Assembly: GCA_017937305.1 (NCBI GenBank)
Contig: JAGBDV010000020.1
Span: forward strand, 57,309 to 121,308
DNA length: 64,000 bases
Direction: 5' to 3'
DNA from: Bacilli bacterium
GTDB taxonomy: Bacteria; Bacillota_I; Bacilli_A; ML615J-28; CAG-313
In this document: piece by piece, positions 7,557 through 55,509 of the stretch
Layout: every line of letters starts with the position of its first letter
Numbering within the stretch: the first letter of the stretch is position 1
The notes under the pieces: generated by a model
The model's input: only the letters and a program-made list of their open reading frames with translations
What the model was told of the DNA's origin: nothing
Databases searched by the model: none
Program-made: the position numbers and the translations under genes

Positions 7557-7568
7557 TTAAACAAATTA

Positions 7569-7609
7569 AAATGGTTAATGCGAAAGCATTAGCCATTTTC
7601 TTTTTTTTT
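7569..7609 (+). terminator. Rho-independent terminator: 12-bp stem with GAAA loop, then a T-run.
   Basis: aatggttaatgc-gaaa-gcattagccatt followed by ttcttttttttt, directly after the giant-gene stop. Confidence 0.8.
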
Positions 7610-7619
7610 AAATTATAAA

Positions 7620-7628
7620 GTGGTATAA
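7620..7628 (+). promoter_or_regulatory. Extended -10 (TGgTATAAT) promoter element upstream of map.
   Basis: tggtataat lies 27 bp before the map ATG. Similar TGaTATAAT boxes occur at 14240, 35206, 36624, 44092 and 46044. Confidence 0.45.
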
Positions 7629-7654
7629 TATATAAGATAAAAGAGGTGAATATA

Positions 7655-8479
7655 ATGAATGAAGCTTATGAAAAGATTAAAAATCGTTTATTAGAATATA
7701 AAAAGAAAAACTATATAGTTCCTACTGAAAAAATGATTAAAACAAAAGAACAAATTGAAGGAATTAAGGCTGCTGGTGTAATTAATACGGCAATTCTTGA
7801 TATGGTGGAAGAAAACATTAAAGCTGGAATGTCTACAGAAGATATTAATAAACTTGTTCATAATTTTACTATTTCTCATGGGGCTATTCCTGCTCCACTT
7901 AATTATGAAGGGTTTCCTAAAAGTGTGTGTGTATCTGTAAACGATTCAGTATGTCATGGAATTCCATCAAAAAAATTGATACTTAAAAATGGAGATATTG
8001 TAAATGTAGATGTTACTACAATTTATAAAGGTTATTATGCCGATGCATCAAGAATGTATATTATTGGTGAAGCAAAGGAAAATGCTAAAAAGTTAGTAAA
8101 AGTTACTAAAGAATGTTTAGAACTTGCTGTTAATGCAATAGTTCCATGGGAGACTAGACTTGGTGATCTAGGCGATATTATTCTTACCCATGCAAGAAAA
8201 AATGGATATAGTGTAGTTAGAGAAATTGGTGGTCATGGTGTAGGACTTGAAATGCATGAAGATCCATATGTTTCTCATGTAGGAAAAAAAGGGACTGGAA
8301 TGCTAATTGTACCGGGTATGGTATTTACTATTGAACCAATGGTAAATGAAGGAAGTAGATTAATTTATCAAGATAGTAGAAATGGTTGGACTATTTATAC
8401 TTATGATGGAAAGTTATCTGCACAGTGGGAGCATACTATTGTTGTAACAGAAGATGGTTGTGAAATTATAACTCATTAA
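7655..8479 (+). CDS. map: Methionine aminopeptidase type I.
   Basis: Full-length MetAP-I fold motifs are present (HGIP, DxVNVDV, EIGGHGVGLEMHEDP, FTIEPM). ATG 7655 has a GAGGTG RBS with 6-nt spacing; the tracked start at 7646 is a GTG inside the RBS. Confidence 0.9.
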   Translation: MNEAYEKIKNRLLEYKKKNYIVPTEKMIKTKEQIEGIKAAGVINTAILDMVEENIKAGMSTEDINKLVHNFTISHGAIPAPLNYEGFPKSVCVSVNDSVCHGIPSKKLILKNGDIVNVDVTTIYKGYYADASRMYIIGEAKENAKKLVKVTKECLELAVNAIVPWETRLGDLGDIILTHARKNGYSVVREIGGHGVGLEMHEDPYVSHVGKKGTGMLIVPGMVFTIEPMVNEGSRLIYQDSRNGWTIYTYDGKLSAQWEHTIVVTEDGCEIITH

Positions 8480-17746: not shown

Positions 17747-17908
17747 TTTTAAATTAAAAGTGTCAATAAAACAAAAAATAGCTTATTTTACTTATATTTT
17801 TTAGCTATAAGTTATAAAAAAATTTAAAAATAACCCATCTGTAAGAAGATGAGTAATAATTAAAATTAATAATTTATCATCAAATTATCGAAAGGAGAAA
17901 AAGAAAAA

Positions 17909-19285
17909 ATGTTAAAAAAATTTATAGGAAATAAACAATTTTATAAAACTTTATTAGTAGTTTGTATACCTATTGTTTTATCCCAATTAATAACGCAATT
18001 TGTTGGTCTTCTTGATAATTTAATGGTAGGACAACTTTCTCCAGCAGAATATAATGGTGTTGCAATAGCAAATCAATTTATGTTTATCTTTAATTTAGCA
18101 GTTTTTGGGGCTACTGCAGGACCTAGTATATTTGCAACACAATATCATGGAGCTAAAAATATTGAAGGTGTTAAAGAAACTATTAGGTATAAATGGATTA
18201 TTAGCATAGTAATCTTATTAATCGGTATATTGGTATTTACACTTTTTGATGATTCATTATTTAACTTATTTATTCATGAGGAAAATTTAGATAGTGTAAA
18301 TCCAGCTGATGTAATTAAATATGGCAAGGAATACCTTTCAGTGATGATTTTTGGATTATTACCATTTGTTATCACTGAAATTTATAGCACAAATTTAAGA
18401 GAAGCAAAACAAACATTTGTACCAATGCTTTCAAACATTATTGCAGTAGTGTTAAATTTAGTATTAAATTACATTTTAATTTTTGGAAACTTTGGTTTAC
18501 CTGCTCTTGGTGTTAAAGGTGCAGCCATAGCAACAGTAATTTCAAGAGTTATTGGTTGTGCAGTTGTTGTTGTTTTTGCTCACTGCAATAAAAAATATAA
18601 TTTTGTTAATTGTATTTTTAAAAGATTTTTACCATCTAAAAGTTCGTTTGTTAATATCTTTAAGGGATCATATTTATTGTTAATTAATGAATTTTTGTGG
18701 TCATTTGGAATGACGCTATTAAATTATTGCTTCTCATTTAAGGGATTAGAAGTTGTAGCTGCCATGAATATTGTATCTACTGTTAGTAACTTATTTGGTT
18801 TACTTGGAACATCAGTAGGTATTGGTATTTCAGTTATACTCGGACAACAACTTGGTTCTAATCAACTAATTGAAGCAAAAGAAGATAGTAATAAATATAT
18901 CTTCTTCGCAATTATATTAGGTATTTTTATTACTGTTTTAATGTTTTTCATTAAAGATCCAATTTTATCGCTTTATAAGTTTGATAGAAGTATTTTAGAT
19001 ATTGCAAGCACTTTAATAATTATTTCTAGTGCGATGGTAGTCGTAAGAACTTACAGTATCACATGTTATTTCATAATAAGAAGTGGTGGAAAGATATTTA
19101 TAACTTTCCTTTTTGATAGTGTATTTACGATTGTTATTAGATTTGGAGTAACGTTCTTATTTGTTAAACTTACTGATTTAAATATTTTCTATATTTATTT
19201 TATTTCAGAATCTTTAGAGATTATTAAAATTATTATTGGGACTATTTTAGTTAAAAAAGGTATTTGGGTAAATAAATTAGATTAA
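17909..19285 (+). CDS. MATE family efflux transporter.
   Basis: 12-TM protein with MATE-like N-terminus (QLITQFVGLLDNLMVGQL). Confidence 0.75.
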   Translation: MLKKFIGNKQFYKTLLVVCIPIVLSQLITQFVGLLDNLMVGQLSPAEYNGVAIANQFMFIFNLAVFGATAGPSIFATQYHGAKNIEGVKETIRYKWIISIVILLIGILVFTLFDDSLFNLFIHEENLDSVNPADVIKYGKEYLSVMIFGLLPFVITEIYSTNLREAKQTFVPMLSNIIAVVLNLVLNYILIFGNFGLPALGVKGAAIATVISRVIGCAVVVVFAHCNKKYNFVNCIFKRFLPSKSSFVNIFKGSYLLLINEFLWSFGMTLLNYCFSFKGLEVVAAMNIVSTVSNLFGLLGTSVGIGISVILGQQLGSNQLIEAKEDSNKYIFFAIILGIFITVLMFFIKDPILSLYKFDRSILDIASTLIIISSAMVVVRTYSITCYFIIRSGGKIFITFLFDSVFTIVIRFGVTFLFVKLTDLNIFYIYFISESLEIIKIIIGTILVKKGIWVNKLD

Positions 19286-27911: not shown

Positions 27912-28616
27912 ATGGTGTTTAAAATTAGATTAATAGAAGAAAAAGATAATTTAGAAATAGAAAAAATTATTCGTGATTGTTTAATAGAATATGGAGTTAA
28001 TCATGAAGGTACCGCATGGCCCGATGAATTCTTATGTAGATTATCTTTTGTTTATAGTGAGCCTAAAACTGCTTATTATGTGGCAGTTGATGAAAATGAA
28101 AATATTGTTGGTGGATGTGGTGTTGGGAAAATTGAAGGAGTAGAAAACACTTGTGAACTACAAAAAATGTATTGTATAAAAAGTGTTAGAAATACCACTG
28201 TTTTAAAACAATTACTTGATGCATGCTTAAGTTTTGCGAAGAAATATTATAATTCTGTGTATTTAGAAATTCTTGAAAATAGGGATGATGAAAAGGAATT
28301 TTTTGAAAAAAATGGGTTTAAGAAAACTAATGAAAGACTTGGTGATACAGGAAATAATAATAATGCGTCTTATTTATTAAAATTTAAGACAGTAGGTTTT
28401 TTAGAAGAGTTTTTTGGAGAATTTTTTGTAGAATTAATTGGTATAATAATTTGTTTTGTTGCGGGGATTTTTATTTGTTCATTATTTCCTAAAAAATGTC
28501 AAGAAGAATTAGATATTGAAGGTATAATTGGAATAGGTGGCGGAGGCCTTTTAATTTTTGGATTATTATTAGGGGCAATTGTTTATTTATTTAAACGCAG
28601 AAAGGATAAAAAATAA
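27912..28616 (+). CDS. GNAT N-acetyltransferase with C-terminal TM anchor.
   Basis: GNAT motif A region (VGGCGVGK..). Two C-terminal TM helices. Confidence 0.55.
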   Translation: MVFKIRLIEEKDNLEIEKIIRDCLIEYGVNHEGTAWPDEFLCRLSFVYSEPKTAYYVAVDENENIVGGCGVGKIEGVENTCELQKMYCIKSVRNTTVLKQLLDACLSFAKKYYNSVYLEILENRDDEKEFFEKNGFKKTNERLGDTGNNNNASYLLKFKTVGFLEEFFGEFFVELIGIIICFVAGIFICSLFPKKCQEELDIEGIIGIGGGGLLIFGLLLGAIVYLFKRRKDKK

Positions 28617-30943
28617 TGAAAAAAATTATCGTTATGTTATTGATGATTTGTTCAGTATTTATGATTACAGGTTGTAAACCTAAAGAATATACTGTAACTT
28701 TAAAATTAGAAGATGGTACTGTATTTGAAGAACTAGTTGTTGAAGAAAAAGTAAGTGTTGATCTTAAAACTCCATCAAAAGAAGGTCATACATTTGCTGG
28801 ATGGTACGATGGTGATGTATTAGTAAATGGTAATGAAGGTTTTGAATCTGATACAGTTTTAACTGCTAAATTTAATATCAATTCATATACTTATAAGTTT
28901 ATTGTAGAAGGTACTATTGTAAAAGAAGAAACTCTTGAATATGGATCAACAATTCCATATCCAGAAGAACCTACAAAAGAGGCTACTGCGGAAAATTCTT
29001 ATGTATTTTCTAGATGGGATAATGATGCTACAACACTTTTAAAAGATGAAGTATTTAATGCAGTATTTGAAAGTAGTAAAAATTCTTATACTTATAAATT
29101 TGTAGATGATAATAATAAGGTTATTAAAGAAGAAACACTTGAATATGGTTCTAGTATTGTATATCCAGAAGATCCAGAAAAAGAAGCAACAGCTGAATAT
29201 ACGTATACATTTACTGGTTGGGATAATGATGCTACAGTATTAACTGAAAATATTGTTTTTAAAGCAACTTATTCTAAAGTAAAGAATCAATATACTTATA
29301 AATTCCTAGATGAAGATGGTTCATTATTAAAAGAAGAAACTGTTGATTATGGTACAATGCCTGTTGCACCAAGTGATCCTGTAAAAGAAGCAACTACTGA
29401 GTTTGAATATGAATTTATTGGATGGGATAAAACTATTTCTAAAGTTACAGGTAATGTAGAATATACTGCAGTGTATAAAGAAATCGAAATTAAGGAAGAA
29501 ATTACTTCACTTGATGGCCTTAAGATTTCTTTCTTAGGTGATAGTATTACTACATTCTATGCTGAAGGCTCAGAAATGAATAGCTATTATGGTGGTGAAA
29601 ACCAATTCTATTATCCTAGATATTCAACATCAATTAAAACTGTTGATTTAACTTGGTGGTATAAATTAATTAAAAATAACAATATGGTACTTGGCATTAA
29701 TAACTCATGGAGTGGTTCTCAAGCGTGTGGTACTGGTAATTCAGCTGGTCAATCTGATGCAAGAATTAATACTTTAAATGAAAATGGTAATCCTGATATC
29801 GTTATTGTATATCTTGGTACTAATGATATTGGAAGCAATAGAACAACAGCTGATTTAGATAAAGCTATTAATACAATTATTACTAAGATTAATGCTTTAT
29901 GCGATGCTCAAATTTTCTTAACTACACTTGGTTATACTACATATTCTGGTGGAAGTTATACTGAAGCTAAACGTATCGAATATAACGCTAAACTTCGAGA
30001 AATTGCAGCTGCAAAAGGCTGTGGAATTGTACCACTTGATGAATATGTTGTTGATGATAACTATATGATTTATTTAGGTGATGCACTTCACTACAATGCT
30101 AAAGGAGCAGAATTACTTTCTTTAATTGCTGAAAAGGCATTAAAAGAATATAATAATATTGAGTTTACTAAAGAAATTGTTGTAGAACATCAAGAACCAC
30201 TTCCTGAAGGTGTTGTTGGAATGATTACTGCAACAACTGATTCTAACTTCTGGGGAGTATATGCAACAGAAGTATTCTTAGCTCCTACTTCAATCACTAA
30301 TCCTACTTTTAGTTTACGTATTGAACTTACTAAGAATGCTGATAATGGTAAATATTATGTTATTAAAATCCAACAATCTGGCGAATCTACTCCTTATACT
30401 GGTGATTTAGTAATTATTATTTCTGATAGTCATAATGATGCAAAAGCTCTTAAGACACAAGTGCAAAATGTAACTGTGGGTTGTATTGCTGAATTTGATG
30501 AATCAATCGGTTTCCCTGTTGAAATTATTTTTAAAGAATGTGATGGTGATGCTCCTTCAGTGGAACCTGATGAACCAGAGGTTGAAGACAATCCTGCAGT
30601 TGAAGGTCAACTTCATGTAGGTGCATATAATAATGGTGTATGGGCAGAAAACATTTATACTAAAGCTGCTTTAATTTATTCAGATGATTATATAGATAAG
30701 AAGAGCACTTATATTAATTATTATATGATTAAATTAAATTATGATGATGCAACTTCTAAATATAAAATTGCTGAATTAAAAACTATTGATGTTGCGTGTG
30801 ACTTTACTGAAAGTTGTGATTTATATGTTTTAATTTATCGAGATTTTGATGGTAAAACATATTTTATTAACGCAAAAGTTGGTGGTTTAGTTACTATTAA
30901 TGGTGATTATACATCTGGTAGTTGTAATCTATTATTTGAATAA
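28616..30943 (+). CDS. Surface lipoprotein: 5 Flg_new repeats, an SGNH/GDSL hydrolase domain, and a C-terminal domain shared with the giant protein.
   Basis: Lipobox MITGC. YTYKF...F(S/T)GWD repeats. GDSITT (SGNH block I) and DALHYN (block V). C-terminal DSNFWGVYA...YYVIKIQQSGE is homologous to giant-protein residues encoded ~1270-1620. Confidence 0.75.
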   Translation: MKKIIVMLLMICSVFMITGCKPKEYTVTLKLEDGTVFEELVVEEKVSVDLKTPSKEGHTFAGWYDGDVLVNGNEGFESDTVLTAKFNINSYTYKFIVEGTIVKEETLEYGSTIPYPEEPTKEATAENSYVFSRWDNDATTLLKDEVFNAVFESSKNSYTYKFVDDNNKVIKEETLEYGSSIVYPEDPEKEATAEYTYTFTGWDNDATVLTENIVFKATYSKVKNQYTYKFLDEDGSLLKEETVDYGTMPVAPSDPVKEATTEFEYEFIGWDKTISKVTGNVEYTAVYKEIEIKEEITSLDGLKISFLGDSITTFYAEGSEMNSYYGGENQFYYPRYSTSIKTVDLTWWYKLIKNNNMVLGINNSWSGSQACGTGNSAGQSDARINTLNENGNPDIVIVYLGTNDIGSNRTTADLDKAINTIITKINALCDAQIFLTTLGYTTYSGGSYTEAKRIEYNAKLREIAAAKGCGIVPLDEYVVDDNYMIYLGDALHYNAKGAELLSLIAEKALKEYNNIEFTKEIVVEHQEPLPEGVVGMITATTDSNFWGVYATEVFLAPTSITNPTFSLRIELTKNADNGKYYVIKIQQSGESTPYTGDLVIIISDSHNDAKALKTQVQNVTVGCIAEFDESIGFPVEIIFKECDGDAPSVEPDEPEVEDNPAVEGQLHVGAYNNGVWAENIYTKAALIYSDDYIDKKSTYINYYMIKLNYDDATSKYKIAELKTIDVACDFTESCDLYVLIYRDFDGKTYFINAKVGGLVTINGDYTSGSCNLLFE

Positions 30944-36205: not shown

Positions 36206-36224
36206 CTTTCGTTAATCCTTTTGC
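36196..36224. terminator. Bidirectional hairpin between the TetR gene and the convergent small membrane-protein gene.
   Basis: aaaaggattaa-ctttcg-ttaatcctttt. Confidence 0.6.
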
Positions 36225-36447
36225 TTCATTTTAATATAGTATTTAATTAAATGGAATAAGTTAATAATTATTAAACAAAAATTCATTAATACAATAGGAT
36301 ATGCTCCAATAATTAATGAGTAAATTGCTGAAATCACTGAACCACATATGTTTACGATTCTTAATTTAATTAATGATGCCATCATCATTGAAATTATTAT
36401 TAGAATTGTACCAATATAACCAAATATTTCTAAATATATATATTCAT
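36212..36447 (-). pseudogene. Small 3-TM membrane protein gene (~77 aa) out of frame after its ATG because of an (AT)5 tract. Possible phase-variable or frameshifted gene.
   Basis: Minus strand: GGAGG at 36453-36457, ATG at 36447-36445, then (AT)5 at 36434-36443, then TAG. Removing one AT unit gives MNIYLEIFGYIGTILIIISMMMASLIKLRIVNICGSVISAIYSLIIGAYPIVLMNFCLIIINLFHLIKYYIKMKQKD*. Length 236 nt, which is 3n+2. Confidence 0.5.
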
Positions 36448-36664
36448 TTTAACCTCCTAAATAATTAATATATGGTAGTTAACCATTAGGTGGTTTGTAG
36501 AAACATTTGTCCATATCACAAATTTATACCATTCTAGATTAGTATTATATCAATTATTAATTAATTTTTCAAGTAAAATCATAAATAAATGATATTTGAT
36601 TAATTTGATTATTACATTATTATATGATATAATATGCTTATATAAATAAGAAAAGAGAGAAAAA

Positions 36665-38809
36665 ATGAAAAAAATTATTTGGTTAAGTATCATAGTATTT
36701 AGTTTACTCAGTTTTAGTTGTTCTAAAAAGCAATATGAAGTAAAATTTATAGGATTAAATGGTGAAATAATTGAGTCTTTTAAATTATTCAAAGATGATG
36801 AAGTTAATTATCCAGAGGCTCCTACTATTGAAGGCTATGATTTTATTAAATGGGATAAAGAAATTAAACATATAAGTGAAGATACAGTTATTACTGCTAT
36901 TTATGAAATTAAAACATATAATGTTAATTTCTATGATGAAAATGATGAGTTATTAGAAACTTTAAAAGTTTTATATAATTCTAGTGTTTCTTATAATCAT
37001 TTATTTAATGTTGAAGGTTATAGTTTTATTGGATGGGATAAGGATTTATCACATATTACGTGTGATTTAGATGTTAAACCTTTGTTTAGTAAGAAAACTT
37101 TTTCGGTTAAGTTTTTTGATGAAGCTGATATTTTAATTAAGGAAGAAATAGTTGAGTATGGTTCATCTGCAACACCTCCAAGTGATTTATCTAAAGAAGG
37201 ACACTCGTTTATTGGATGGGATACTGAGTTTACTAATGTACTTGCTAATCTTGTAGTGTATCCAGTGTTTGAACCACAAAAATTTACAGTTAATTTTTAT
37301 GATGAATCAGGAAAACTTTTAAAAGAAGAAATTGTTGATTATGGGACATCTGCAGAAGGAATATCTGCACCAAATAAAAATGGATATAAATTTGTTAGAT
37401 GGGATGAAGACATTAACAATATTACATCTAATTTAGATGTTTATCCAATTTATGAAGAACTAACTTTTACTGTTACTTTTGTTGATCAATATGGAGATGT
37501 TTTAAAAGTAGAAGAAGTTAAGTTTAAACAATCAGCTACTGCACCTGATGCTCCAGTGTTAGATTATTATAATTTTAATAAATGGGATTTAGATTTTAGT
37601 GAGGTTATGAATAATATGACAGTTAAAGCAATCTATACAAAAGAACAACAAACTTATAGTATTTCTAATGTTAATTACTGGTTGCAAATTTTATCATCTA
37701 AATATAATATAAATAAAACAATTTTAACTCCTAGTGAAATTAATAATTATAATGATAAAATTTTAAGTGATTATGCAAAAACTGAAGTTATGGATGTTTT
37801 AAGTATTACTGGTACTAAGACTCAAAGTTATGTTAAAAACTTAATTACTTCTTATGCAAATATTAATAAATATACAATATATAATGATTCTACAAAAGTA
37901 GCTTTAACAACTTCTGAAAAAGATACCATATTATCTAATCGTAATTTAACAAGCGTTCCTTCAACTGTTACTGTTAAATATGGTATAATATCTGATTTTG
38001 CGTGGCTAAGAAGTTATCCGACAAATCATTATTCTAATAATTATAGCATGGATAGATTCCAAGAAACATCTCTTAATGTTGGTGAAGGAGTTGCAATATA
38101 CCATGAAAGTTTAGATAAACAGTGGTATTTTGTACAAGCTGAAAACTATAATGGATGGATTGAAAAGAAGTATGTCGCAGAGTGTAGTTATGATGAATTA
38201 GAAGCGTTCTTAAAACCTCAAAATAGTTTGCTTGTCATTAGTGATTATGTAACATTAGAATCATCGCATGTTCGTATGGGACAAGTATTCCCGTTAGTAT
38301 CTAAAACTTTAGATTCATATACTATGAAGTTCCCTACAAGAAATAGTGATGGTAAACTTGTGTTAAAAGATTTAACTGTTGCAAAATCTAATGATTATCA
38401 TGAAGGGTATTTAGATTATACATATTACAATGTATTTAACCAAGCATTTAAACTACTTGGTATTGATTATAGCTGGGGTGATAAAGATAAACTTGGTCGT
38501 GACTGTTCATCAACAATGAATGCGATTTATAAGTGTTTTGGTTTTATGATGCCAAGAAATACTTCTAATCAAGTTGCTATTCCAACATATGGATCAAAGG
38601 TTAGTGGTTTAACTAATGCAACAGTTAGAAACTATAAACCAGGATCATTAATTTTTACATCTAGTCATGTAATGTTATATTTAGGTGAAAATGAAAGTGG
38701 TATAGCATATTTACTTCACAATACTACATCTGGAAATGGAGAATGTATTTTACAATCTTTAAATGACTACGGTGGAAGTAGAATTAATGGTGTATTAAAA
38801 CTTCAATAA
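36665..38809 (+). CDS. Surface lipoprotein: 7 Flg_new repeats, a middle domain, and C-terminal SH3b + NlpC/P60 peptidoglycan endopeptidase domain.
   Basis: Lipobox LSFSC. Repeats (F/V)xGWD. C-terminus carries GRDCSSTMN (catalytic Cys) and SHVMLYLG (His) of NlpC/P60, preceded by an SH3b-like YGIISDFAWLRSYP. Confidence 0.75.
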   Translation: MKKIIWLSIIVFSLLSFSCSKKQYEVKFIGLNGEIIESFKLFKDDEVNYPEAPTIEGYDFIKWDKEIKHISEDTVITAIYEIKTYNVNFYDENDELLETLKVLYNSSVSYNHLFNVEGYSFIGWDKDLSHITCDLDVKPLFSKKTFSVKFFDEADILIKEEIVEYGSSATPPSDLSKEGHSFIGWDTEFTNVLANLVVYPVFEPQKFTVNFYDESGKLLKEEIVDYGTSAEGISAPNKNGYKFVRWDEDINNITSNLDVYPIYEELTFTVTFVDQYGDVLKVEEVKFKQSATAPDAPVLDYYNFNKWDLDFSEVMNNMTVKAIYTKEQQTYSISNVNYWLQILSSKYNINKTILTPSEINNYNDKILSDYAKTEVMDVLSITGTKTQSYVKNLITSYANINKYTIYNDSTKVALTTSEKDTILSNRNLTSVPSTVTVKYGIISDFAWLRSYPTNHYSNNYSMDRFQETSLNVGEGVAIYHESLDKQWYFVQAENYNGWIEKKYVAECSYDELEAFLKPQNSLLVISDYVTLESSHVRMGQVFPLVSKTLDSYTMKFPTRNSDGKLVLKDLTVAKSNDYHEGYLDYTYYNVFNQAFKLLGIDYSWGDKDKLGRDCSSTMNAIYKCFGFMMPRNTSNQVAIPTYGSKVSGLTNATVRNYKPGSLIFTSSHVMLYLGENESGIAYLLHNTTSGNGECILQSLNDYGGSRINGVLKLQ

Positions 38810-45957: not shown

Positions 45958-46043
45958 TATTTCGATTATTTCCTATAATAAGAAAATATGTTATTATTTA
46001 ATAAAAAAATATGTGGTTATTTGTTGATTTTTAATTTAAGTTT

Positions 46044-46052
46044 TGATATAAT
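46044..46052 (+). promoter_or_regulatory. Extended -10 (TGATATAAT) of the pyr operon promoter.
   Basis: ttttgatataat lies ~105 bp upstream of the pyrB ATG. Confidence 0.45.
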
Positions 46053-46100: not shown

Positions 46101-46131
46101 GTTTTTTTAATGGCCTTTATAGGCCTTTTTT
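46101..46131 (+). terminator. Leader terminator/attenuator-like hairpin in the pyrB 5' leader.
   Basis: U-tract (gttttttt), then ggcct-ttat-aggcc, then ttttttt, ending 25 nt before the pyrB RBS. Confidence 0.45.
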
Positions 46132-46156
46132 TCTAAAAAAATATAAGGAGAATACT

Positions 46157-47020
46157 ATGAAGAACTTATTTACTTTAGATGAACTTACTAATCAAGAAAT
46201 TATGGATATTCTTAATGATGCTATTGCTTTTAGTAATGGTAAAGATTTTTCACTTTCTGGTAAAATTGTTGCTAATTTATTTTTTGAACCTTCAACAAGG
46301 ACGGAGTATTCCTTTGTTATGGCGGAACATCTTCTTAATATGAAGCCAATTTCGTTTAACAAAGCATCTTCGTCTTTTTCTAATAAAGGGGAGACTTTTG
46401 AAGATACAGTTAAATGTTTTGAAGCATTTGGAGTAGATGCATTTGTTATTAGACATTCAGAAAATGAATATTATAAAAATCTTAACTTAAGTGTTCCACT
46501 TCTTAATGCAGGAGATGGTACTCATGCACATCCTACACAATGTTTACTTGATTTACTTACTATTTATCAAGAATTTGGATCATTTGAAGGACTAAAGGTT
46601 TGTTTTGTAGGCGACATTAAGTTCTCAAGAGTTGCTCATGAAGGAATTAAAACAATGGAACGTCTTGGAATGGAATGTTTTGTAAGTGGACCTAACATTT
46701 ATATGGAAGATGATTATAAGTTTGTTGAACTTGATGATGCAGTAAAAATGATGGATGTAATAGTATTACTACGTGTTCAAAATGAACGTCATAGTGATAA
46801 AGATCATGTAGAAAAGTCTTCATATTTAAGTTTATATGGAATGACTAAAGAACGCGCTCTTTCAATGAAAGAAGGTGCAATCATTATGCACCCTGCTCCA
46901 TTTAATCGTGGTATTGAAATTGAAGATGCTGTTTTAGATCTTCCACAATGTCGTATTTTTAAACAAATGAAAAACGGGGTGTTTGTACGTCAAGCAGTCC
47001 TAAAAAGGAGTTTTGAATAA
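46157..47020 (+). CDS. pyrB: Aspartate carbamoyltransferase catalytic subunit.
   Basis: STRTE, HPTQ and HPAP motifs. Confidence 0.9.
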   Translation: MKNLFTLDELTNQEIMDILNDAIAFSNGKDFSLSGKIVANLFFEPSTRTEYSFVMAEHLLNMKPISFNKASSSFSNKGETFEDTVKCFEAFGVDAFVIRHSENEYYKNLNLSVPLLNAGDGTHAHPTQCLLDLLTIYQEFGSFEGLKVCFVGDIKFSRVAHEGIKTMERLGMECFVSGPNIYMEDDYKFVELDDAVKMMDVIVLLRVQNERHSDKDHVEKSSYLSLYGMTKERALSMKEGAIIMHPAPFNRGIEIEDAVLDLPQCRIFKQMKNGVFVRQAVLKRSFE

Positions 47021-48267
47021 TGCTTTATACTTTAAAGGGTGGTTATGTATACACTAATAAACAAATTGTAAAAACTAATGTTATTGTAAATGATGGTAAA
47101 ATTATTGAAATTAGTGATAATGTTTTAGGTAATGTAATTGATGTTACAGGTTTATACGTAGCACCTAGTTTCATAGATCCACATGTTCACATGCGTGAAC
47201 CAGGATTTTGTGAATCTGAAACTATTAAAACAGGATCACTTGCAGCAGCGCGTGGTGGGTATACTAAAGTATTTTTAATGCCTAATACTAATCCTGTTAT
47301 TTCAAGTATTGAAGCTTATCAAAATTTATTAGAAATTATTAAAAAAGATTCAATTATTGAATGTTTTCCACTTGTGTCAATTACTAAAGATGAACAAGGA
47401 GTTGAACTTGTTGATTTTGAAAAGTTTGATGCTGTTGGTTTTTCTGATGATGGAAAACCAGTTAGTAATTCATATCTTGTTTATCAAGCAATGCTGAAAC
47501 TTAAAAGTTTAAATAAACCAATGTTATGCCATTGTGAAGATTTAGACTTAGTACATAAGGGTACATTTAATAATTCAGTTAAACAAGAAAATAGTCTTGC
47601 TTTACCTAATCTTGATATTTCAGAAACTACTAATGTTGCAAGAGATTTAGTTATTGCAGCTAAAACAGGATGTCAGTATCATGTATGTCATTTAGCTACT
47701 AAAGAATCTCTTGACTTAATTAGATTCTATAAATCAATTGGTTGTAATTGTACATGTGAGGCTACACCTCATCATATAGTTTTGAATGATGAAATGATAG
47801 AAATTACACCAGATTTTAAAATGAATCCTCCAATTAGGGGTAAGAAAGATCAAGATGCATTAATTATGGGGATTATAAATGGTGATGTAGATATGATTTC
47901 TACAGATCATGCTCCTCATAGTATTGAAAAGAAGAATAAAGAAATTAATTCTTCAGCATATGGTATTGTTGGCCTTGAGACATCGTTTCCATTACTATAT
48001 ACTAAATTAGTAAGAAGTGGATTAATAAAAGTTGAAAAATTATTTGATTTAATGAGTTATAATGTTGCTGAAACATTTAATCTTGATAATCATGAAATAT
48101 GTGTTGGTAATCATTTATCAGCAGTTGTTCTAGATTTAGATTGCGAATTTACGATTGATAAAAATAGTTTTAAATCTAAATCTAATAATACTCCATTTGA
48201 TGGATGGAAGTGTTATGGAAAAGTATTAAAAACAATATGTAAAGGAGAAATAGTCTATGAAGCCTAA
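47020..48267 (+). CDS. pyrC: Dihydroorotase.
   Basis: PSFIDPHVHMREPG metal-binding motif. Position between pyrB and carA. Confidence 0.9.
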   Translation: MLYTLKGGYVYTNKQIVKTNVIVNDGKIIEISDNVLGNVIDVTGLYVAPSFIDPHVHMREPGFCESETIKTGSLAAARGGYTKVFLMPNTNPVISSIEAYQNLLEIIKKDSIIECFPLVSITKDEQGVELVDFEKFDAVGFSDDGKPVSNSYLVYQAMLKLKSLNKPMLCHCEDLDLVHKGTFNNSVKQENSLALPNLDISETTNVARDLVIAAKTGCQYHVCHLATKESLDLIRFYKSIGCNCTCEATPHHIVLNDEMIEITPDFKMNPPIRGKKDQDALIMGIINGDVDMISTDHAPHSIEKKNKEINSSAYGIVGLETSFPLLYTKLVRSGLIKVEKLFDLMSYNVAETFNLDNHEICVGNHLSAVVLDLDCEFTIDKNSFKSKSNNTPFDGWKCYGKVLKTICKGEIVYEA

Positions 48268-49348
48268 AAAGTTAGTATTACAAAATGGAAAAGAATTTAT
48301 AGGTTTAGGAAGTGGCGATGAAAAAGTAGCAGAAGTGGTATTCCATACTGGGATGATTGGTTATTTAGATATTGTTAGTAACCCATACTATGCTGGTAAG
48401 TTTGTATGTATGACATATCCTTTAATTGGTAATTATGGTGCAAGTGATGATGAATTTGGATCAAAAGATTATCATGTTGAAGGTTTTATTGTTAAAGATA
48501 CTGATTTTATCTCTTCTAATATGCGCTATTTAGATTCAATGGATGATTTCTCTATTGCAAATGATTTACCTATTTTATGTGGTATTGATACAAGAATGCT
48601 TGCTAAAGTTATTCGTGATGAAGGTAGTATGAAAGGTATTATTACTGATGTTGATACACCTATTGAAGAAGCATTATTAAAAATTAATGCATATACCCCT
48701 ATTAAAGGAATGGTAAAAAAATTAAGCACTAAACGTCCTAATATGGTTAAAGCAAATAAACCTAAATATACAGTTGTATGCTTAGATTTAGGATGTAAAA
48801 ATAATATTATTAGTGAACTTACTAATAGAAAATGTAATGTTGTAGTATTACCATATAATACTGATGCATCTAAGATTTTATCTTATCATCCTAATGCCAT
48901 TATTGTATCTAATGGTCCAGATGAACCTTCTGAATTAGAAGTTGTAGTTAACAATTTAAAACAACTTATTGGTCGTCTTCCTATTGCAGGGATTGGACTT
49001 GGTCATTTATTAGTTGCAAAAGCAAGTGGTGCTAAAATTAAGAAAATGAAATTTGGTCATCATGGTGCTAATCAATCTGTTAAAAATTTAGTTAATAAAA
49101 AGATAATTATTACTTTACAAGGTCATAATTATGAAGTAGATAGAGAATCACTTATTAATACTTCATTAAATGTTACACTTGAAAATTTAAGTGACTTATC
49201 AATTGAAGGTGTTTCAAGTAGTGAATTATTAGTTGTTACATCAGCATTTGATGCATTTGAAGCAAGTGCTGCGCCTATAGTTAAAACAATTTATGATGAA
49301 TTAATTGATTTAATTAAATCTTCAAAAGGAGGATCAAATAATGCCTAA
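48257..49348 (+). CDS. carA: Carbamoyl-phosphate synthase small subunit homolog with glutaminase catalytic Cys and His replaced (GIGLGH instead of GICLGHQ; DAFEAS instead of QGHPEAS).
   Basis: N-terminal CPSase small-chain domain is conserved. The GATase domain has [32 protein letters not shown], where E. coli has [32 protein letters not shown]. Confidence 0.85.
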   Translation: [363 protein letters not shown]

Positions 49349-52300
49349 ACGTACTGATATTCATAAAATATTAATTATTGGTTCTGGTCCGATTGTAATT
49401 GGTCAAGCAGCTGAATTTGACTATGCTGGTACTCAAGCTTGTCTTGCGTTAAAAGAAGAAGGTTATGAAGTTGTATTAATTAATTCAAATCCTGCAACTA
49501 TTATGACAGATAAACTAGTTGCTGATAAAGTTTATATGGAACCTCTTGATTTAGAGTTTACATCAAGAATTATTCGTTATGAAAGACCTGATGCAATTTT
49601 ATGTGCACTTGGTGGTCAAACTGGTCTTAATCTTTGTGTAAGTCTATCTAAAAAAGGCGTTTTAGAAGAATGCGGTGTAAAAGTATTAGGTACTTCTATT
49701 CAAGCTATTGAAGAAGCTGAAGATAGAGAAAAGTTTAAAAATCTTTGTCAAAGAATTGGTGAACCAATTATAGAATCAGATATTGCAAATACAGCAACAC
49801 AAGCTTTAGAAATTGCTGATAGAATTGGTTATCCAATTGTTGTTAGACCAGCATTTACACTTGGTGGTACTGGGGGAGGTTTTGCAAATAATGAAGCAGA
49901 ACTTACTGATTTAGCAGATTATGCATTAAGTTTATCTCCAGTTAATCAAATTTTAATTGAAAAAAGTGTTAAAGGATATAAAGAAATTGAATTTGAAGTT
50001 ATGCGTGATGGTAACGATACTGCAATTTGTATTTGTAGTATGGAAAACATTGACCCTGTAGGCGTTCATACAGGGGATTCAATGGTTGTTGCACCATGTC
50101 AAACTCTTACAACTAAAGAATTTAGTATGCTTAAGAATGCTTCTATTAAGATTATTAGAGCTCTTGGTATAAAAGGTGGTTGTAATGTTCAATTTGCATT
50201 AGATCCTGAATCATATGATTATTATGTTATTGAAGTAAATCCTCGTGTAAGTAGATCTAGTGCACTTGCATCAAAGGCAAGTGGATTCCCTATCGCTAGA
50301 GTTACTGCAAAAATTGCATGTGGACTTAACTTAGAAGAAATTGAAATTGCTTCAGGTCAAGCTGCATTTGAACCTACACTTGATTATGTAGTATGTAAAT
50401 TTGCAAGATTCCCATTTGATAAATTCAATGATGTTGCTAAAACATTATCAACACAAATGAAAGCAACAGGTGAAGTAATGAGTTTAGGTCGTACTTTTGA
50501 AGAAGCATTCTTAAAAGGTATTAGATCACTTGAAACTAAAGTTGATCATTTATATATGGAAAAGTTTAATAATGCAGAAACAAGTGATTTATTAAAACAA
50601 ATTGAAGTTCCAACTGATGAAAGAGTCTTCATGATTGCAGAACTATTAAGAAGAGATGTAACATGTGAAGAAATTTATGAAGCTACAAAGATTGATTTAT
50701 TCTTCTTAAGAAAAATAGAAAATATTATTTTATTTGAAAAAGAATTAAAAGAAGATCATGGTTTAGAAAACTTTATTAAAGCTAAAAAATTAGGTTTTTC
50801 AGATCAATATTTAGCTAAAATTATGAATATGTCTGAACTTGATGTTTATAAGTACCGAAAAGAAAATAATATCTATCCGGTATTTAAAATGATTGATACA
50901 TGTGCTGCTGAACTTGATACTTATACTCCTTACTTTTATTCAACATATGATACTGAAAATGAATCAGTAGTTTCTGATAAAGAAAAGATTATTGTTTTAG
51001 GATCAGGTCCAATTAGAATTGGTCAAGGTGTTGAATTTGACTATTCTACAGTTCACGCTATTTGGGCAATTAAAGAAAAAGGCTACGAAGCTATTGTTAT
51101 TAATAATAACCCTGAAACAGTTTCTACTGACTATTTAGTTACCGATAAATTATATTTTGAACCTTTAACAGTTGAAGATATAATGAATATCATCGATTTA
51201 GAAAAACCGAAAGGTGTTATCGTGTCTTTAGGTGGTCAAACTGCAATTAATCTTGCAGAAAGATTAGACACACTAGGTGTTCCAATTATTGGTACTGACT
51301 GCGAAGCTATTGCAAAAGCAGAAAATAGAAAATTATTTGAAGCATTAATGCATGAATTAGATATCCCTGAACCAGAAGGTAAAACTGTATTTAATCTTGA
51401 AGATGGTTTAGCTGCTGCTCATAAAATTACTTATCCTGTACTTGTTCGTCCTTCATATGTTCTTGGTGGACGTGCAATGGAAATTGTTTATGATGATGGT
51501 CATTTAGAAAAATATTTAAATAAAGCATTTGCACTAGACCCTAATCAACCTGTATTAATTGACAAATATGTAATTGGACGTGAAATTGAAGTTGATGCAA
51601 TTTGCGATGGTGAAGATGTATTTATGCCTGGTATCATGCAACATATTGAAGGAACTGGTATTCACTCAGGAGATTCAATTAGTGTATATCCTGCATATAG
51701 CTTATCTAAAAAAGTTGAAGAAACAATTAAAGATTATACTAGACGTTTAGGTCTTGCAATAGGTATTAAAGGTTTATTTAATATTCAATATATTGTTGAT
51801 TCAAATGATTTTGTTTATATTATTGAAGTAAATCCAAGATCAAGCCGTACAATTCCATATCTATCTAAATCTAGTAAGATTAATCTTGCAAAAATTGCAA
51901 CATTTGTAATGCTAGGTGAAAAACTAAAAGATATGAATTTAACTGAACCTACACCTAATATGTATTATGTTAAAGTCCCATGTTTCTCATTCTCTAAAAT
52001 TAGAGGATTAGATACAGTACTTTCTCCTGAAATGAAATCAACTGGTGAAGCTATTGGTTATGACCAATCGCTTAATCGTGCTTTATATAAAGCTTTAAAA
52101 GCTGCAAATATGAGAGTTATTAATTATGGTACTGTTTTTGTAACTTTATCTGATCAAACTAAAGAAGAAGCTCTTCCTTTAATTAGAAGATTCTACAATT
52201 TAGGATTTAATATTGAAGCTACTAAAGGAACTGGTAAGTTCTTAAAAGAACATGGAATTAAAACAAGAATTAAAAAGAAAATATCAGAAGGTAGTGAAGA

Positions 52301-52496
52301 AATCTTAGATTCATTAAGAAAAGGACATGTTTCTTATGTAATTAATACTGTTGGTCATGTTAGAACAAATAATGATGGTTTCTTAATTAGAAGAGTAGCT
52401 GCAGAAAATAATATTACATGTTTTACTAGTCTTGATACATTAAAAGCATTACTTGATGTTCTTGATGAAATCACAATTAAGGTAGGTACAATTTAA
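49341..52496 (+). CDS. carB: Carbamoyl-phosphate synthase large subunit.
   Basis: 1051 aa with two ATP-grasp halves (IIGSGPIVIGQAAEFDY... and IVLGSGPIRIGQGVEFDY...) and a C-terminal MGS-like domain. Confidence 0.95.
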   Translation: MPKRTDIHKILIIGSGPIVIGQAAEFDYAGTQACLALKEEGYEVVLINSNPATIMTDKLVADKVYMEPLDLEFTSRIIRYERPDAILCALGGQTGLNLCVSLSKKGVLEECGVKVLGTSIQAIEEAEDREKFKNLCQRIGEPIIESDIANTATQALEIADRIGYPIVVRPAFTLGGTGGGFANNEAELTDLADYALSLSPVNQILIEKSVKGYKEIEFEVMRDGNDTAICICSMENIDPVGVHTGDSMVVAPCQTLTTKEFSMLKNASIKIIRALGIKGGCNVQFALDPESYDYYVIEVNPRVSRSSALASKASGFPIARVTAKIACGLNLEEIEIASGQAAFEPTLDYVVCKFARFPFDKFNDVAKTLSTQMKATGEVMSLGRTFEEAFLKGIRSLETKVDHLYMEKFNNAETSDLLKQIEVPTDERVFMIAELLRRDVTCEEIYEATKIDLFFLRKIENIILFEKELKEDHGLENFIKAKKLGFSDQYLAKIMNMSELDVYKYRKENNIYPVFKMIDTCAAELDTYTPYFYSTYDTENESVVSDKEKIIVLGSGPIRIGQGVEFDYSTVHAIWAIKEKGYEAIVINNNPETVSTDYLVTDKLYFEPLTVEDIMNIIDLEKPKGVIVSLGGQTAINLAERLDTLGVPIIGTDCEAIAKAENRKLFEALMHELDIPEPEGKTVFNLEDGLAAAHKITYPVLVRPSYVLGGRAMEIVYDDGHLEKYLNKAFALDPNQPVLIDKYVIGREIEVDAICDGEDVFMPGIMQHIEGTGIHSGDSISVYPAYSLSKKVEETIKDYTRRLGLAIGIKGLFNIQYIVDSNDFVYIIEVNPRSSRTIPYLSKSSKINLAKIATFVMLGEKLKDMNLTEPTPNMYYVKVPCFSFSKIRGLDTVLSPEMKSTGEAIGYDQSLNRALYKALKAANMRVINYGTVFVTLSDQTKEEALPLIRRFYNLGFNIEATKGTGKFLKEHGIKTRIKKKISEGSEEILDSLRKGHVSYVINTVGHVRTNNDGFLIRRVAAENNITCFTSLDTLKALLDVLDEITIKVGTI

Positions 52497-53239
52497 TGGT
52501 AAAAGAGAATTTAAAAGTAATTTATAATAAACAAATTGCTCTTGATACATTTGAAATGAAATTAGAAACTCTTAATATGGCATCTTTTGCAAAACCAGGA
52601 ATGTTTATTAATATTTCATTAAATGATGCATCTAAATTATTAAAAAGACCTATTTCGATTTGTCAAATTGATAATAATCATTTAATCATTACTTATAAAA
52701 TTAATGGTGAAGGAACTAAAATTTTATCAACTTATCAAAGTGGAACATCTTTAGAAGCTATTGGACCACTTGGTAATGGATTTACTTTAGTTGAAAATAA
52801 AAAAACACTAGTAGTTGGTGGAGGAATTGGTGTTCCACCACTACTAGAGCTATCTAGAAATCTAAAGAAATTAGGTAATGAATTAGTAATTATTCTTGCA
52901 TTTAGAAATAAAGAAGCAATGATTTATTTAGATGAATTTAAAAAGCTAGGTGAAGTAGCAGTAACTACTGATGATGGATCATTTGGATTTAAAGGTAATG
53001 CACTTGATTATTTACATAATAATAATATTGAATTTGATACATTATATAGTTGTGGCCCTGAAATTCTTTTAAAGAAATTAGAAGAAAAATATCAAGGATT
53101 TGAAGGTTATCTATCTTATGAAGCAAGAATGGCATGTGGTGTGGGCCTTTGTCATGGGTGTGTAAAGGGTGAAAAACATTACTGTGTATGTACAGATGGA
53201 CCTGTATTTAAGTTAGGAGTTATCTATGGCGAATGTTAG
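52496..53239 (+). CDS. pyrK: Dihydroorotate dehydrogenase electron-transfer subunit (FAD/2Fe-2S).
   Basis: FNR-like fold and C-terminal [10 protein letters not shown]...C cluster. Confidence 0.85.
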
Positions 53240-54140
53240 AGTAAAATTACCAGGTCTTGATTTAAAAAATCCTATTATTCCAGCTAGTGGAACTGCAGGA
53301 TTTGGTGAAGAACTTGCTAGTATTTATGATTTAAGTGTTCTTGGTGGTATTATGATTAAAGCTACAAGTGTTAATCCAAAAAGAGGAAATAAAACACCAA
53401 GAGTTGCAGAAACATATGGTGGAATGCTTAATTCAATTGGTCTTGAAAATCCTGGCTTAGATGTTGTAATAAATGAAAAGTTACCATTTCTAGCTAAATA
53501 TGATACTTGTGTTATCGCAAATATTTGTGGTGATTCTATTGATGAATATGTAAAAGTAGCATATGAAATTAGTAGAGTAGATAATGTAGCTGCACTAGAA
53601 CTAAATATTAGTTGTCCTAATGTTCATGGTGGAGGGATTCCATTTGGAGCAGATGAAGAAACTGTTTATGAAATTACTAAAAGAGTAAAAGAAGCATCTA
53701 TTAAACCAGTTTATGTAAAACTTAGTCCAAATGTAACTGATATTGTTAAAATGGCAAAAGCAGCTGAACGTGGCGGTGCAGATGGTCTTTCTTTAATTAA
53801 TACACTTCTTGGTATGAGAATAGACTTAAAAACAGGACGTCCTATTTTATATAATAAAAAAGGTGGATTTTCTGGGCCTGCAATTAAACCTGTTGCAATA
53901 AGAATGATTTATGATGTTTATGAAGCAGTAAATATTCCTATTATAGGTATGGGTGGTATTGCAACTGTTGATGATTGTATTGAATTCTTAATGGCTGGTG
54001 CATCGGCACTTGGTGTTGGTACAATGAATTTAGTAAATCCATATATTTGTAAAGAATTAGTAGAAGAACTACCTCTTGCTCTTGCAAAGTATGGTTTTAA
54101 AGATATAAATGAGTGCATTGGTTATGCACATCGAAAATAG
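53226..54140 (+). CDS. pyrD: Dihydroorotate dehydrogenase catalytic subunit (class 1B).
   Basis: [18 protein letters not shown] (catalytic Cys) and GIATVDD blocks. Confidence 0.9.
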
Positions 54141-54154
54141 GAGGGAAGATTAAA

Positions 54155-54850
54155 ATGGTTATTATCGCATTAGATTTTAAAGATATGGAAACTTCATTAA
54201 ATTTCTTAGATAAATTTAATGAATCATTATATGTTAAAGTTGGTATGGAATTATTTTATGGTTCAGGACTTGAAATTGTAAAAGAAATAAAAAAACGTGG
54301 ACATAAAATCTTTTTAGATTTAAAACTTCATGATATTCCTAATACTGTTAAAAAAGCTATGACTAATCTTGCAAGACTTGGTGTAGATATTATTAACTTA
54401 CATGCTGCTGGTGGTTCAAAAATGATGGCTGCAGCACTTGAAGGTTTAACTGAAGGTTCAACTGGAAAACGTCCTATTTTAATAGCTGTAACTCAACTTA
54501 CTTCAACATCTAAAGAAATGATGAATACTGAACAACTAATTCCAGGTGAAGTGATTGATTCTGTAGTTAATTATGCAAAAGTTTCAAAAGAATCAGGACT
54601 TGATGGTATTGTATGTTCACCACTTGAAGTAGAAAAAGTAAAAGAAGCTTGTGGTAAAGAATTTGTAACTGTTACACCAGGAATTCGTCTTGCATCTAAT
54701 AATGCTGATGATCAAGTTAGAATTACAACACCAGCAAAAGCTAGAGAAATTGGCTCTGATTATATTGTTGTAGGTCGTCCTATTACACAAGCAGAAAATC
54801 CAGTTGAAGCATATCATTTAATTTTAAAGGAGTTTTTAGGAAATGAGTAG
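54155..54850 (+). CDS. pyrF: Orotidine-5'-phosphate decarboxylase.
   Basis: [18 protein letters not shown] and VVGRPI motifs. ATG 54155 with GGAGGGAAG RBS; the tracked 54113 start is a GTG inside pyrD. Confidence 0.9.
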
Positions 54851-55463
54851 TGTAGAAAAGAATTTACTTAAGATTAAAGCAGTATTTTTAAGTCCTAAAG
54901 CACCATTTACATGGGCTAGTGGAATTAAATCTCCAATTTACTGTGACAATAGATTAGTTTTATCATATCCAGAAGTAAGATGTGAAATTGAACATGCATT
55001 AGCAGATTTAGTAAAAGAAAAATTCCCAGAATGTGAAATTTTAATGGGTACTGCAACAGCAGGTATTCCTCATGCTGCATATGTTTCAGAATATTTAGGT
55101 CTTCCTATGGGGTATGTAAGAAGTGGAAATAAAGATCATGGTCGTCAAAATAAAATTGAAGGGCACTATGAAAAAGGTGATAAAGTAGTAGTAGTTGAAG
55201 ATTTAATCTCTACTGGTAAATCAAGTATTGAAGTAGTTAACTCTTTAATTGAAGCAGGTGTAGAAGTAATTGGTTGTGTTGCAATCTTCTCATATGGTTT
55301 TGATGAAGCACAAAGTGCATTTGACCAAGTAAATGTTCCATATTATTCACTTGCTAACTTTAATAATCTAGTTAAAGTAGCAGTAGAAGAAGGTTACATC
55401 GAACAAGAAGATCTAGAAGATGTATTAGAATGGAGAAAATCTCCACGTACTTGGAGAGCATAA
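54843..55463 (+). CDS. pyrE: Orotate phosphoribosyltransferase.
   Basis: PRPP-binding motif [13 protein letters not shown]. Confidence 0.9.
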
Positions 55464-55466
55464 TAA

Positions 55467-55509
55467 TAAAAAAAATTAAGTTCTAACTTACGTTAGAACT
55501 TATTTTTTT
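55467..55509. terminator. Bidirectional terminator between pyrE and the convergent DedA-like gene.
   Basis: A-run, then aagttctaac-ttac-gttagaactt, then T-run. Confidence 0.8.

Follow-up and report, generated by a model that had tools for sequence, protein, structure and literature searches.

We examined a 64,000-nucleotide stretch of contig JAGBDV010000020.1 from a Bacilli bacterium (the window, by which we mean the whole of this stretch), and in it carA, the small-subunit gene of carbamoyl-phosphate synthetase (CPSase, or CPS). The gene lies in an operon for de novo synthesis of uridine monophosphate (UMP), and the protein that it encodes lacks the Cys and His of the canonical glutaminase site. 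The operon, as delimited from the open reading frames (ORFs), contains the following features:

46024-46052, + strand: promoter-like sequence for the pyr operon, TG-extended TTGATT-17-TATAAT (a consensus match only)
46112-46135, + strand: GC-rich, terminator-like leader hairpin with a T-run, directly 5' of the pyrB ribosome-binding site
46157-55463, + strand: the de novo UMP operon, eight genes, pyrB-pyrC-carA-carB-pyrK-pyrD-pyrF-pyrE (ORF list)
46157-47020, + strand: pyrB, aspartate carbamoyltransferase, which consumes carbamoyl phosphate (Pfam OTCace_N, OTCace)
47020-48267, + strand: pyrC, dihydroorotase (Pfam Amidohydro_1, DHOase; ORF list)
48257-49348, + strand: carA (pyrAa), coding for a CPSase small subunit of 363 amino acids whose glutaminase site is dead
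49341-52496, + strand: carB (pyrAb), CPSase large subunit, intact, 1051 amino acids (NCBIfam NF003671)
52496-55463, + strand: pyrK, pyrD, pyrF and pyrE, which complete the UMP pathway and belong to one transcription unit with the genes before them (ORFs; Pfam families in related loci)
55477-55502, strand (.): bidirectional terminator-like hairpin closing the operon, 3' of pyrE

The gene order is that of the Firmicutes pyrB-pyrC-pyrAa-pyrAb-pyrK-pyrD-pyrF-pyrE operon. The start of carA overlaps the end of pyrC by 11 nucleotides, and its stop overlaps carB, with its ATG at 49341, by 8 nucleotides (49341-49348, + strand, ATGCCTAA); a GGAGG box stands upstream of this ATG, at about 49328-49335. 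As judged from this arrangement, carA and carB are translationally coupled. They occupy two different frames, as ORFs of 363 and 1051 amino acids, and do not form a single fused chain. This layout of carA and carB recurs in the four closest genomes (L001-L004), which are metagenome-assembled genomes (MAGs) of uncultured Bacilli or Erysipelotrichaceae from goat gut. The window as a whole has a G+C content of 28%.

To CarA we could assign both domains of a CPSase small subunit:

48272-48643, + strand: CPSase_sm_chain N-terminal domain, residues 6-129, the better conserved half (Pfam PF00988, E=3.7e-36, full profile covered)
48782-49225, + strand: class I glutamine amidotransferase-like (GATase) domain, residues 176-323 (Pfam PF00117, E=3.4e-28)

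A HMMER comparison matched the protein to E. coli CarA over its entire length (E=5e-60). It scored 332 bits against the family model NF009475, above the cut-off of 221, and 320.5 bits against TIGR01368, marginally above the cut-off of 307.35. Since it passes these cut-offs, automatic annotation would name it glutamine-hydrolysing. An AlphaFold2 model built from a 45-sequence alignment had a mean predicted local distance difference test score (pLDDT) of 87.7 and a predicted template modelling (TM) score of 0.87, with pLDDT values of 92-98 over most of the GATase domain. When this model was compared with the Protein Data Bank (PDB) using Foldseek, the best match was E. coli CarA (1jdb chain B, TM 0.81) and the second was human CPS1. 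On this modelling, CarA is a full-length and correctly folded CPSase small subunit.

The loss of the glutaminase site is visible in four short segments:

48386-48400, + strand: pocket segment Y-Y-A-G-K (residues 44-48) opposite E. coli S47-Y-S-R-Q51, with Tyr44 for Ser47 and Lys48 for Gln51
48989-49012, + strand: nucleophile-elbow motif G-I-G-L-G-H-L-L, with Gly247 (GGA, 48995-48997) for Cys269 and Leu251 for Gln273
49115-49138, + strand: L-Q-G-H-N-Y-E-V, canonically S/A-Q-N-H-S/G-Y/F-A-V, with Gly289 for Asn311
49247-49267, + strand: remnant of the His/Glu segment, F-D-A-F-E-A-S (residues 331-337), canonically Q-F/Y-H-P-E-A/S-S, without His

In the HMMER alignment, E. coli G-I-C269-L-G-H-Q273-L pairs with G-I-G247-L-G-H-L251-L of the window protein, and E. 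coli Q-G-H353-P-E355-A-S lies opposite F-D-A-F-E-A-S, which puts Ala333 opposite His353 and retains a Glu at 355. MAFFT shifts this last segment by one residue and gives Asp332 and Phe334 instead. Retention of Glu355 depends on the alignment chosen; the loss of His353 does not, because the segment contains no His. An earlier note on this stretch, made from the sequence, had held that the N-domain and GATase fold are conserved, that Cys269 and His353 are both gone, and that the gene is intact and overlaps carB. The Pfam and structural matches, the alignment to E. coli CarA and the overlap with its GGAGG box bear out all of this. Its position for the first motif (~48989-49006) was right, but the second motif lies about 5 nucleotides further right than it had been placed, at 49247-49267. 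The damage is also wider than that note saw, extending to Ser47, Gly243, Gln273, Asn311, Gln351, Pro354 and Gly359.

To gauge how far the damage extends, we aligned 257 CarA homologs and took as canonical the 139 with an intact Cys-His-Glu triad. In these, 39 positions are at least 98% invariant. The window CarA differs at 12 of them, and 11 of the 12 cluster near the glutamine site, in four short stretches. The changes at these 11 positions, canonical residue to window residue, are:

Asp45 to Asn
Ser47 to Tyr
Gly243 to Asp
Cys269 to Gly
Gln273 to Leu
Asn311 to Gly
Gln351, His353, Pro354 and Glu355, all replaced (Glu355 by MAFFT; alignment-dependent)
Gly359 to Ala

The twelfth difference, outside the active-site subset, is a conservative change of Glu41 to Asp. 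CarA keeps none of the 11 active-site positions and 27 of the 28 elsewhere, and the clustering of the replaced invariant positions is plain from the alignment itself. Ser47, Gly243, Gln273 and Asn311, which on the basis of the E. coli structures we take to be glutamine-pocket residues, are each invariant or near-invariant in 140 canonical sequences and have become Tyr, Asp, Leu and Gly; Gln351, Pro354 and Gly359, likewise near-invariant in canonical CarA, are replaced as well. Asp45 and Ser47 are present in 140/140 canonical sequences, as are the three triad residues, by which this set is defined, and Asn311 in 138/140. In the window protein Asp45 has given way to Asn42 (codon 48380-48382) and Gly243 to Asp222. 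Several of the new residues are themselves conserved within the window clade, namely Tyr44, Lys48, Asp222 and Leu251: Tyr at position 47 in 23/29 members, Lys at position 51 in 28/29 and Asp at position 243 in 23/29. These changes, read from the sequence, indicate that the window CarA is unable to hydrolyse glutamine by the known mechanism.

The substitution is real and fixed within its clade. Several assemblies of ruminant gut metagenomes contain, on 22 contigs, an identical 363-residue CarA, and a goat caecum MAG is also among the sources of the contigs studied. Position 269 is Gly in 28/28 of the nearest 90%-identity clusters, which range in identity from 96% to 56%, and likewise in L001-L004, the related GTDB genomes. 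These observations refute any origin of the Gly codon in an error of sequencing or assembly, or in a mutation private to one strain; we found no evidence in support of such an origin, and the chance that it is correct is negligible.

How many of the 11 active-site positions survive depends on how close a protein is to the window CarA:

P0027: 9/11 kept, only Cys269 and Gln273 lost
P0023-P0028: 5-7 of 11 kept
P0017-P0022: 2-3 of 11 kept
P0001-P0016 and the window: 0-1 of 11 kept

Retention falls with closer kinship to the window protein, and all members of the series keep 25-27 of the 28 other invariant positions. Such an order is expected if the site was first inactivated by loss of the Cys and its remaining catalytic residues were then free to drift, with constraint persisting over the remainder of the protein. 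The nearest homolog with an intact Cys-His-Glu triad, P0029, is 48% identical and sits in a pyrB-pyrC-carA-carB-pyrK-pyrD-pyrF cluster with flanking genes of equal lengths. Because P0029 occupies the same operon slot, the window carA is an ortholog that has gone dead within its lineage and not an ancient paralog. These comparisons indicate that the loss of glutaminase function is lineage-specific and came about by decay of the orthologous pyr-operon carA.

A gene that has lost its catalytic function might simply be decaying, its frame kept only so that carB can be translated through the overlap. The 8-nucleotide overlap would suit such a history, as would the finding that no other protein of the operon is as poorly conserved as CarA. 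Between the window and the four related genomes it is 76-84% identical, as against 94-96% for CarB and 95-98% for PyrB, and the orthologs of pyrK, pyrD, pyrF and pyrE are 87-99% identical. To measure selection we estimated omega, the ratio of nonsynonymous (dN) to synonymous substitution rates, by the method of Nei and Gojobori (NG86) between the window and these four genomes. Omega was 0.16-0.34 for carA (0.11-0.34 over all comparisons) and 0.06-0.08 for carB; within carA it was 0.09-0.23 for the N-terminal domain and 0.23-0.50 for the GATase domain. As a control we used canonical carA-carB pairs from other fetched loci with a CarB identity of 94-99%. The medians were:

CarA identity: canonical (n=54) 92.9%; Cys-less (n=10) 83.5%
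dN(carA)/dN(carB): canonical (n=54) 1.56; Cys-less (n=10) 3.28
Omega of carA: canonical (n=54) 0.046; Cys-less (n=10) 0.188
Omega of carB: canonical (n=54) 0.028; Cys-less (n=10) 0.070

The ratio of dN in the GATase domain to dN in the N-domain had a median of 0.66 in 285 canonical pairs (5th-95th percentile 0.42-1.24, with 3 pairs at or above 1.7) and of 1.85 in Cys-less pairs. Relaxation is focused on the GATase half, and the order of constraint between the two domains is reversed relative to canonical CarA. The gene as a whole is under purifying selection, with an omega of about 0.19, well below 1. A functionless carA is accordingly hard to reconcile with the data: omega does not approach 1, 27/28 invariant positions beyond the active site survive, the model of the fold is a confident one, four replacement residues in the pocket are conserved in the clade, and length is constant, with no frameshifts, across 29 clusters down to 56% identity. 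We regard decay of this kind as highly improbable. A pseudogene is ruled out by the intact ORF, by the range of omega and by the retention of 27/28 non-active-site positions.

The conserved replacements lend themselves to a further reading, in which CarA is still an amidohydrolase that uses another nucleophile or another nitrogen donor at a new site formed by Tyr44, Lys48 and Asp222. The frequencies of Tyr, Lys and Asp in the close clade (23/29, 28/29 and 23/29) are what speaks for it. Deep branches of the clade, however, do without Tyr44, Lys48 and Asp222 and are already Cys-less, and independent Cys-less lineages carry quite different residues there. The equivalent of Gly359 has become bulky in two such lineages, Ile in L091 and Gln in L092, which suggests from the sequences that in these enzymes ammonia is not routed through the old glutaminase site. 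We know of no class I amidotransferase that works without the Cys of the nucleophile elbow. In the E. coli enzyme, to go by the title of the report, blocking the tunnel stops the use of glutamine and not that of ammonia (Huang and Raushel 2000). We consider a new amidohydrolase barely credible.

CarB is intact and strongly constrained. It scores 1491.6 bits against NF003671, aligns with residues 1-1045 of E. coli CarB and has the C-terminal MGS-like allosteric domain. It also keeps C232/A251/A314, the residues named as the gate of the ammonia tunnel (PMC8674909). One position differs in the window clade: residue 265 (E. coli numbering) is Arg in 61/61 canonical sequences and Lys in 7/7 members of the clade, including L001-L004, L083 and L088. 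We take R265 to be a tunnel-wall residue at the subunit interface, and an E. coli triple mutant, alphaP360A/alphaH361A/betaR265A, reportedly perforates the tunnel wall. From its position, R265K may have co-evolved with the degraded 358-361 segment of CarA. We also looked for a convergent signature in CarB that would accompany Cys-less CarA. R265K was the sole candidate and was rejected, as the residue stays Arg in the five other Cys-less lineages examined; being limited to the window clade, it provides no general signature.

Taken together, the evidence points to a carA that has probably become a pseudo-glutaminase, kept as a partner of CarB in what is most likely an ammonia-dependent CPS. In such an enzyme, CarA would fold, would neither bind nor hydrolyse glutamine, would be made together with CarB and would be selected as its partner. 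The pair would form carbamoyl phosphate from bicarbonate, two ATP and free cellular ammonia, with free ammonia as the physiological nitrogen donor. What remains of the role of CarA would be to give CarB stability or shape, and it may also contribute to the path by which ammonia enters. The rumen and hindgut are rich in ammonia, and an ammonia-rich ruminant gut could have made the glutaminase dispensable; a similar argument from gut ammonia has been made for the gut in other work (PMC8121099). In E. coli CPS, glutamine cannot be hydrolysed without Cys-269 and His-353, and the large subunit by itself makes carbamoyl phosphate from ammonia (PMC6245113). By analogy with E. coli CarB, with the tunnel-block mutant and with human CPS1, the window CarA-CarB most likely cannot use glutamine and takes ammonia instead.

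Several points weigh against this interpretation. The pairs of genes that we compared are phylogenetically non-independent, and the contrast in omega is partly confounded, as omega of carB is also raised in the lineage (0.070 vs 0.028). The subset of 11 active-site positions was our own choice, made from structural work on the E. coli enzyme and from sequence neighbours. For the E. coli enzyme, the concentrations of ammonia required are very high and probably beyond the physiological range (PMC6245113); the window enzyme would need a better affinity for ammonia, and its sequence proves none. Isolated E. coli CarB is, as cited in PMC8121099, active with ammonia alone, so that the reason for keeping CarA is not obvious, and the structural role that we assign to CarA is inferred from conservation only.

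An intact carA or carAB elsewhere in the genome would likewise count against it. Such a copy could supply a glutamine-dependent CPS, and the operon copy would then be a high-ammonia isozyme or redundant. This would resemble the two-CPS arrangement of Bacillus, with separate pyrimidine- and arginine-specific enzymes (Paulus and Switzer 1979, as cited in PMC8121099), or the CarAB and CarB2 of Bacteroides, between which B. thetaiotaomicron switches according to ammonium supply (PMC8121099). A tblastn search of the 64-kb window with two canonical CarA queries found no carA besides the operon copy. Moreover, it is the dead copy that is coupled to carB in the only pyr operon seen, and such a copy is likewise adjacent to carB in 8/8 other Cys-less loci. 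We think an intact copy elsewhere unlikely. Even with a paralog, the CarA-CarB pair would be blind to glutamine, so this alternative alters the physiology more than the mechanism.

The earlier note had taken CarA for a retained structural partner, which fits the 27/28 conserved positions, the omega of about 0.19 and the reversed conservation of the two domains. It had left room for an arginine-specific copy; carA, lying inside the pyr operon, is plainly a pyrimidine copy and not an arginine-specific one. It had also called this state unusual; it does depart from the textbook enzyme, but among the anaerobic Firmicutes in sequence databases it is common. Among the 150 nearest 50%-identity cluster representatives, a sample biased toward the query, 65-70 lack Cys269. 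The replacement is mostly Gly, with Ala, Ser, Asp, Asn, Val and Phe also found, and most of these representatives lack His353 too. Their source names include Erysipelotrichaceae, Clostridia bacterium, Evtepia sp. and Defluviitaleaceae, and the cultured Desulfonispora thiosulfatigenes DSM 11270 and Thermosyntropha lipolytica DSM 11003 are also carriers. In a neighbour-joining tree, which is distance-based and has no resampling support, Cys-less and Cys-containing CarA interleave in more than 20 runs, and this pattern of sequences suggests that Cys269 was lost repeatedly, many independent times. In 8/8 further Cys-less loci carA lies directly upstream of carB, and 7/8 contain other pyr genes; in L093, pyrC is upstream of carA and the contig ends within carB.

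Among the Cys-less examples examined, the window clade is the most decayed. Its divergence from more distant relatives again falls on CarA: relative to L083, CarB is 91% and CarA 61% identical, and relative to L084, 81% and 48%. We put at about even the chance that many anaerobic Firmicutes independently made the CPS of the pyr operon obligately ammonia-dependent, with CarA surviving as a pseudoenzyme that supports CarB and perhaps aids ammonia uptake. The lineages in question would include Erysipelotrichaceae-like gut Bacilli, the Clostridia Evtepia and Defluviitaleaceae, Desulfonispora thiosulfatigenes and Thermosyntropha lipolytica. Were this so, the belief that bacterial CPSs are without exception glutamine-dependent would be overturned.

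Some observations concern these relatives individually. The Desulfonispora thiosulfatigenes DSM 11270 locus (L081, GCA_900176035.1) has a Cys-less CarA in a pyr operon (gene at 7028-8107). Its triad positions read Gly-His-Glu, and those of the Thermosyntropha protein (P0137), for which no encoding contig is on record, read Gly-Asp-Glu. At NCBI, WP_084053652.1 and WP_073092557.1 are named glutamine-hydrolyzing carbamoyl-phosphate synthase small subunit; for a Cys-less CarA this name is probably a systematic misannotation. The NCBI assembly of Desulfonispora breaks pyrB into two ORFs (L081, 4821-5755), but an independent Logan assembly has the gene intact, at 353 amino acids (L082, 4064-5125), and the break is probably a frameshift error of assembly. 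In L083, whose CarA is the Cys-less relative 61% identical to that of the window, a glutamate dehydrogenase gene (ELFV_dehydrog, 17366-18709) lies directly 3' of pyrE. As glutamate dehydrogenase assimilates ammonia, this gene fits a high-ammonia lifestyle.

Other features of the window bear on its regulation and gene content. The leader hairpin with its T-run was observed at one site, as against 0.0 expected in shuffled sequence, and may be an attenuator of undescribed type. A search of the pyr leader for the PyrR-binding RNA motif matched nothing in Rfam, whether with the gathering threshold or with E<=1, and no pyrR gene adjoins the operon. A purine riboswitch aptamer (RF00167) lies at 36456-36551 on the - strand, with 54 bits against a gathering score of 37. 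Downstream of it on the minus strand the sole ORF encodes 58 amino acids (36212-36388), and the larger genes nearby, on the + strand, encode a TetR-like regulator and an NlpC/P60 surface protein. A predicted surface protein of 2498 amino acids at 60-7556 carries Listeria-Bacteroides repeats, Big_2 domains and an N-acetylmuramoyl-L-alanine amidase domain, and two more proteins with Flg_new repeats are encoded at 28616-30943 and 36665-38809.

The literature presents glutamine as the general substrate of these enzymes. Every bacterial CPS studied is stated to use glutamine (PMC8121099), and all types of CPS except CPS1 are said to do so (PMC4655335). Full-text literature searches turned up no account of a natural bacterial CarA that lacks its catalytic Cys, and an ammonia-run, two-subunit bacterial CPS with a dead small subunit most likely has no earlier documentation. 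If our interpretation is correct, these gut anaerobes would draw the nitrogen of pyrimidines directly from the ammonia pool, bypassing glutamine, which bears on models of nitrogen flow in rumen and gut. Metabolic reconstructions would inherit the annotation error noted above for WP_084053652.1 and WP_073092557.1. The graded series from 9/11 to 0/11 active-site positions would provide a natural set for studying how pseudoenzymes form and what a small subunit does apart from catalysis.

The system closest to the window enzyme is canonical bacterial CarA/PyrAa, represented by E. coli CarA (PDB 1jdb chain B). The two share their two-domain architecture, their fold and their slot upstream of carB. 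Unlike the window protein, canonical CarA has the Cys-His triad and the glutamine-contact residues, and its GATase half is the slower-evolving one. Rubino, Nyunoya and Lusty are said to have found in 1986 that C269G and C269S enzymes of E. coli keep full NH3-dependent synthesis. The E. coli mutants C269S (PDB 1c30) and G359F (PDB 1m6v), which are among the fold matches, carry laboratory counterparts of the lesions in the window CarA, but each was engineered as one change into a glutaminase left intact elsewhere, whereas the window lineage fixed the change and then lost the rest of the site.

Another departure from the glutamine rule in a gut anaerobe is the orphan CarB2 of B. thetaiotaomicron (BT3866), proposed to act as an ammonium-dependent CPS under ample ammonium supply (PMC8121099). 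No small subunit accompanies CarB2, which coexists with a canonical CarAB, whereas the window operon has kept its small subunit, conserved and dead, adjoining carB.

Animal mitochondrial CPS I provides the parallel for a glutaminase module kept after its Cys was replaced. Human CPS1 (PDB 5dou) cannot use glutamine, as Ser294 replaces the catalytic Cys (PMC4655335), and its donor is free ammonia, as we predict for the window CarA-CarB. CPS I is one fused chain of about 1500 residues that needs N-acetylglutamate and serves the urea cycle, whereas the window enzyme consists of two bacterial proteins in the pyrimidine pathway; in CPS I the Cys became Ser, whereas in the window CarA it became Gly and the His was lost as well. 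By this comparison, the window CarA and CPS I are independent, convergent events, and if the interpretation holds for the other Cys-less lineages, the route of CPS I, in which a dead glutaminase is kept as a structural module, would have been taken repeatedly in bacteria.

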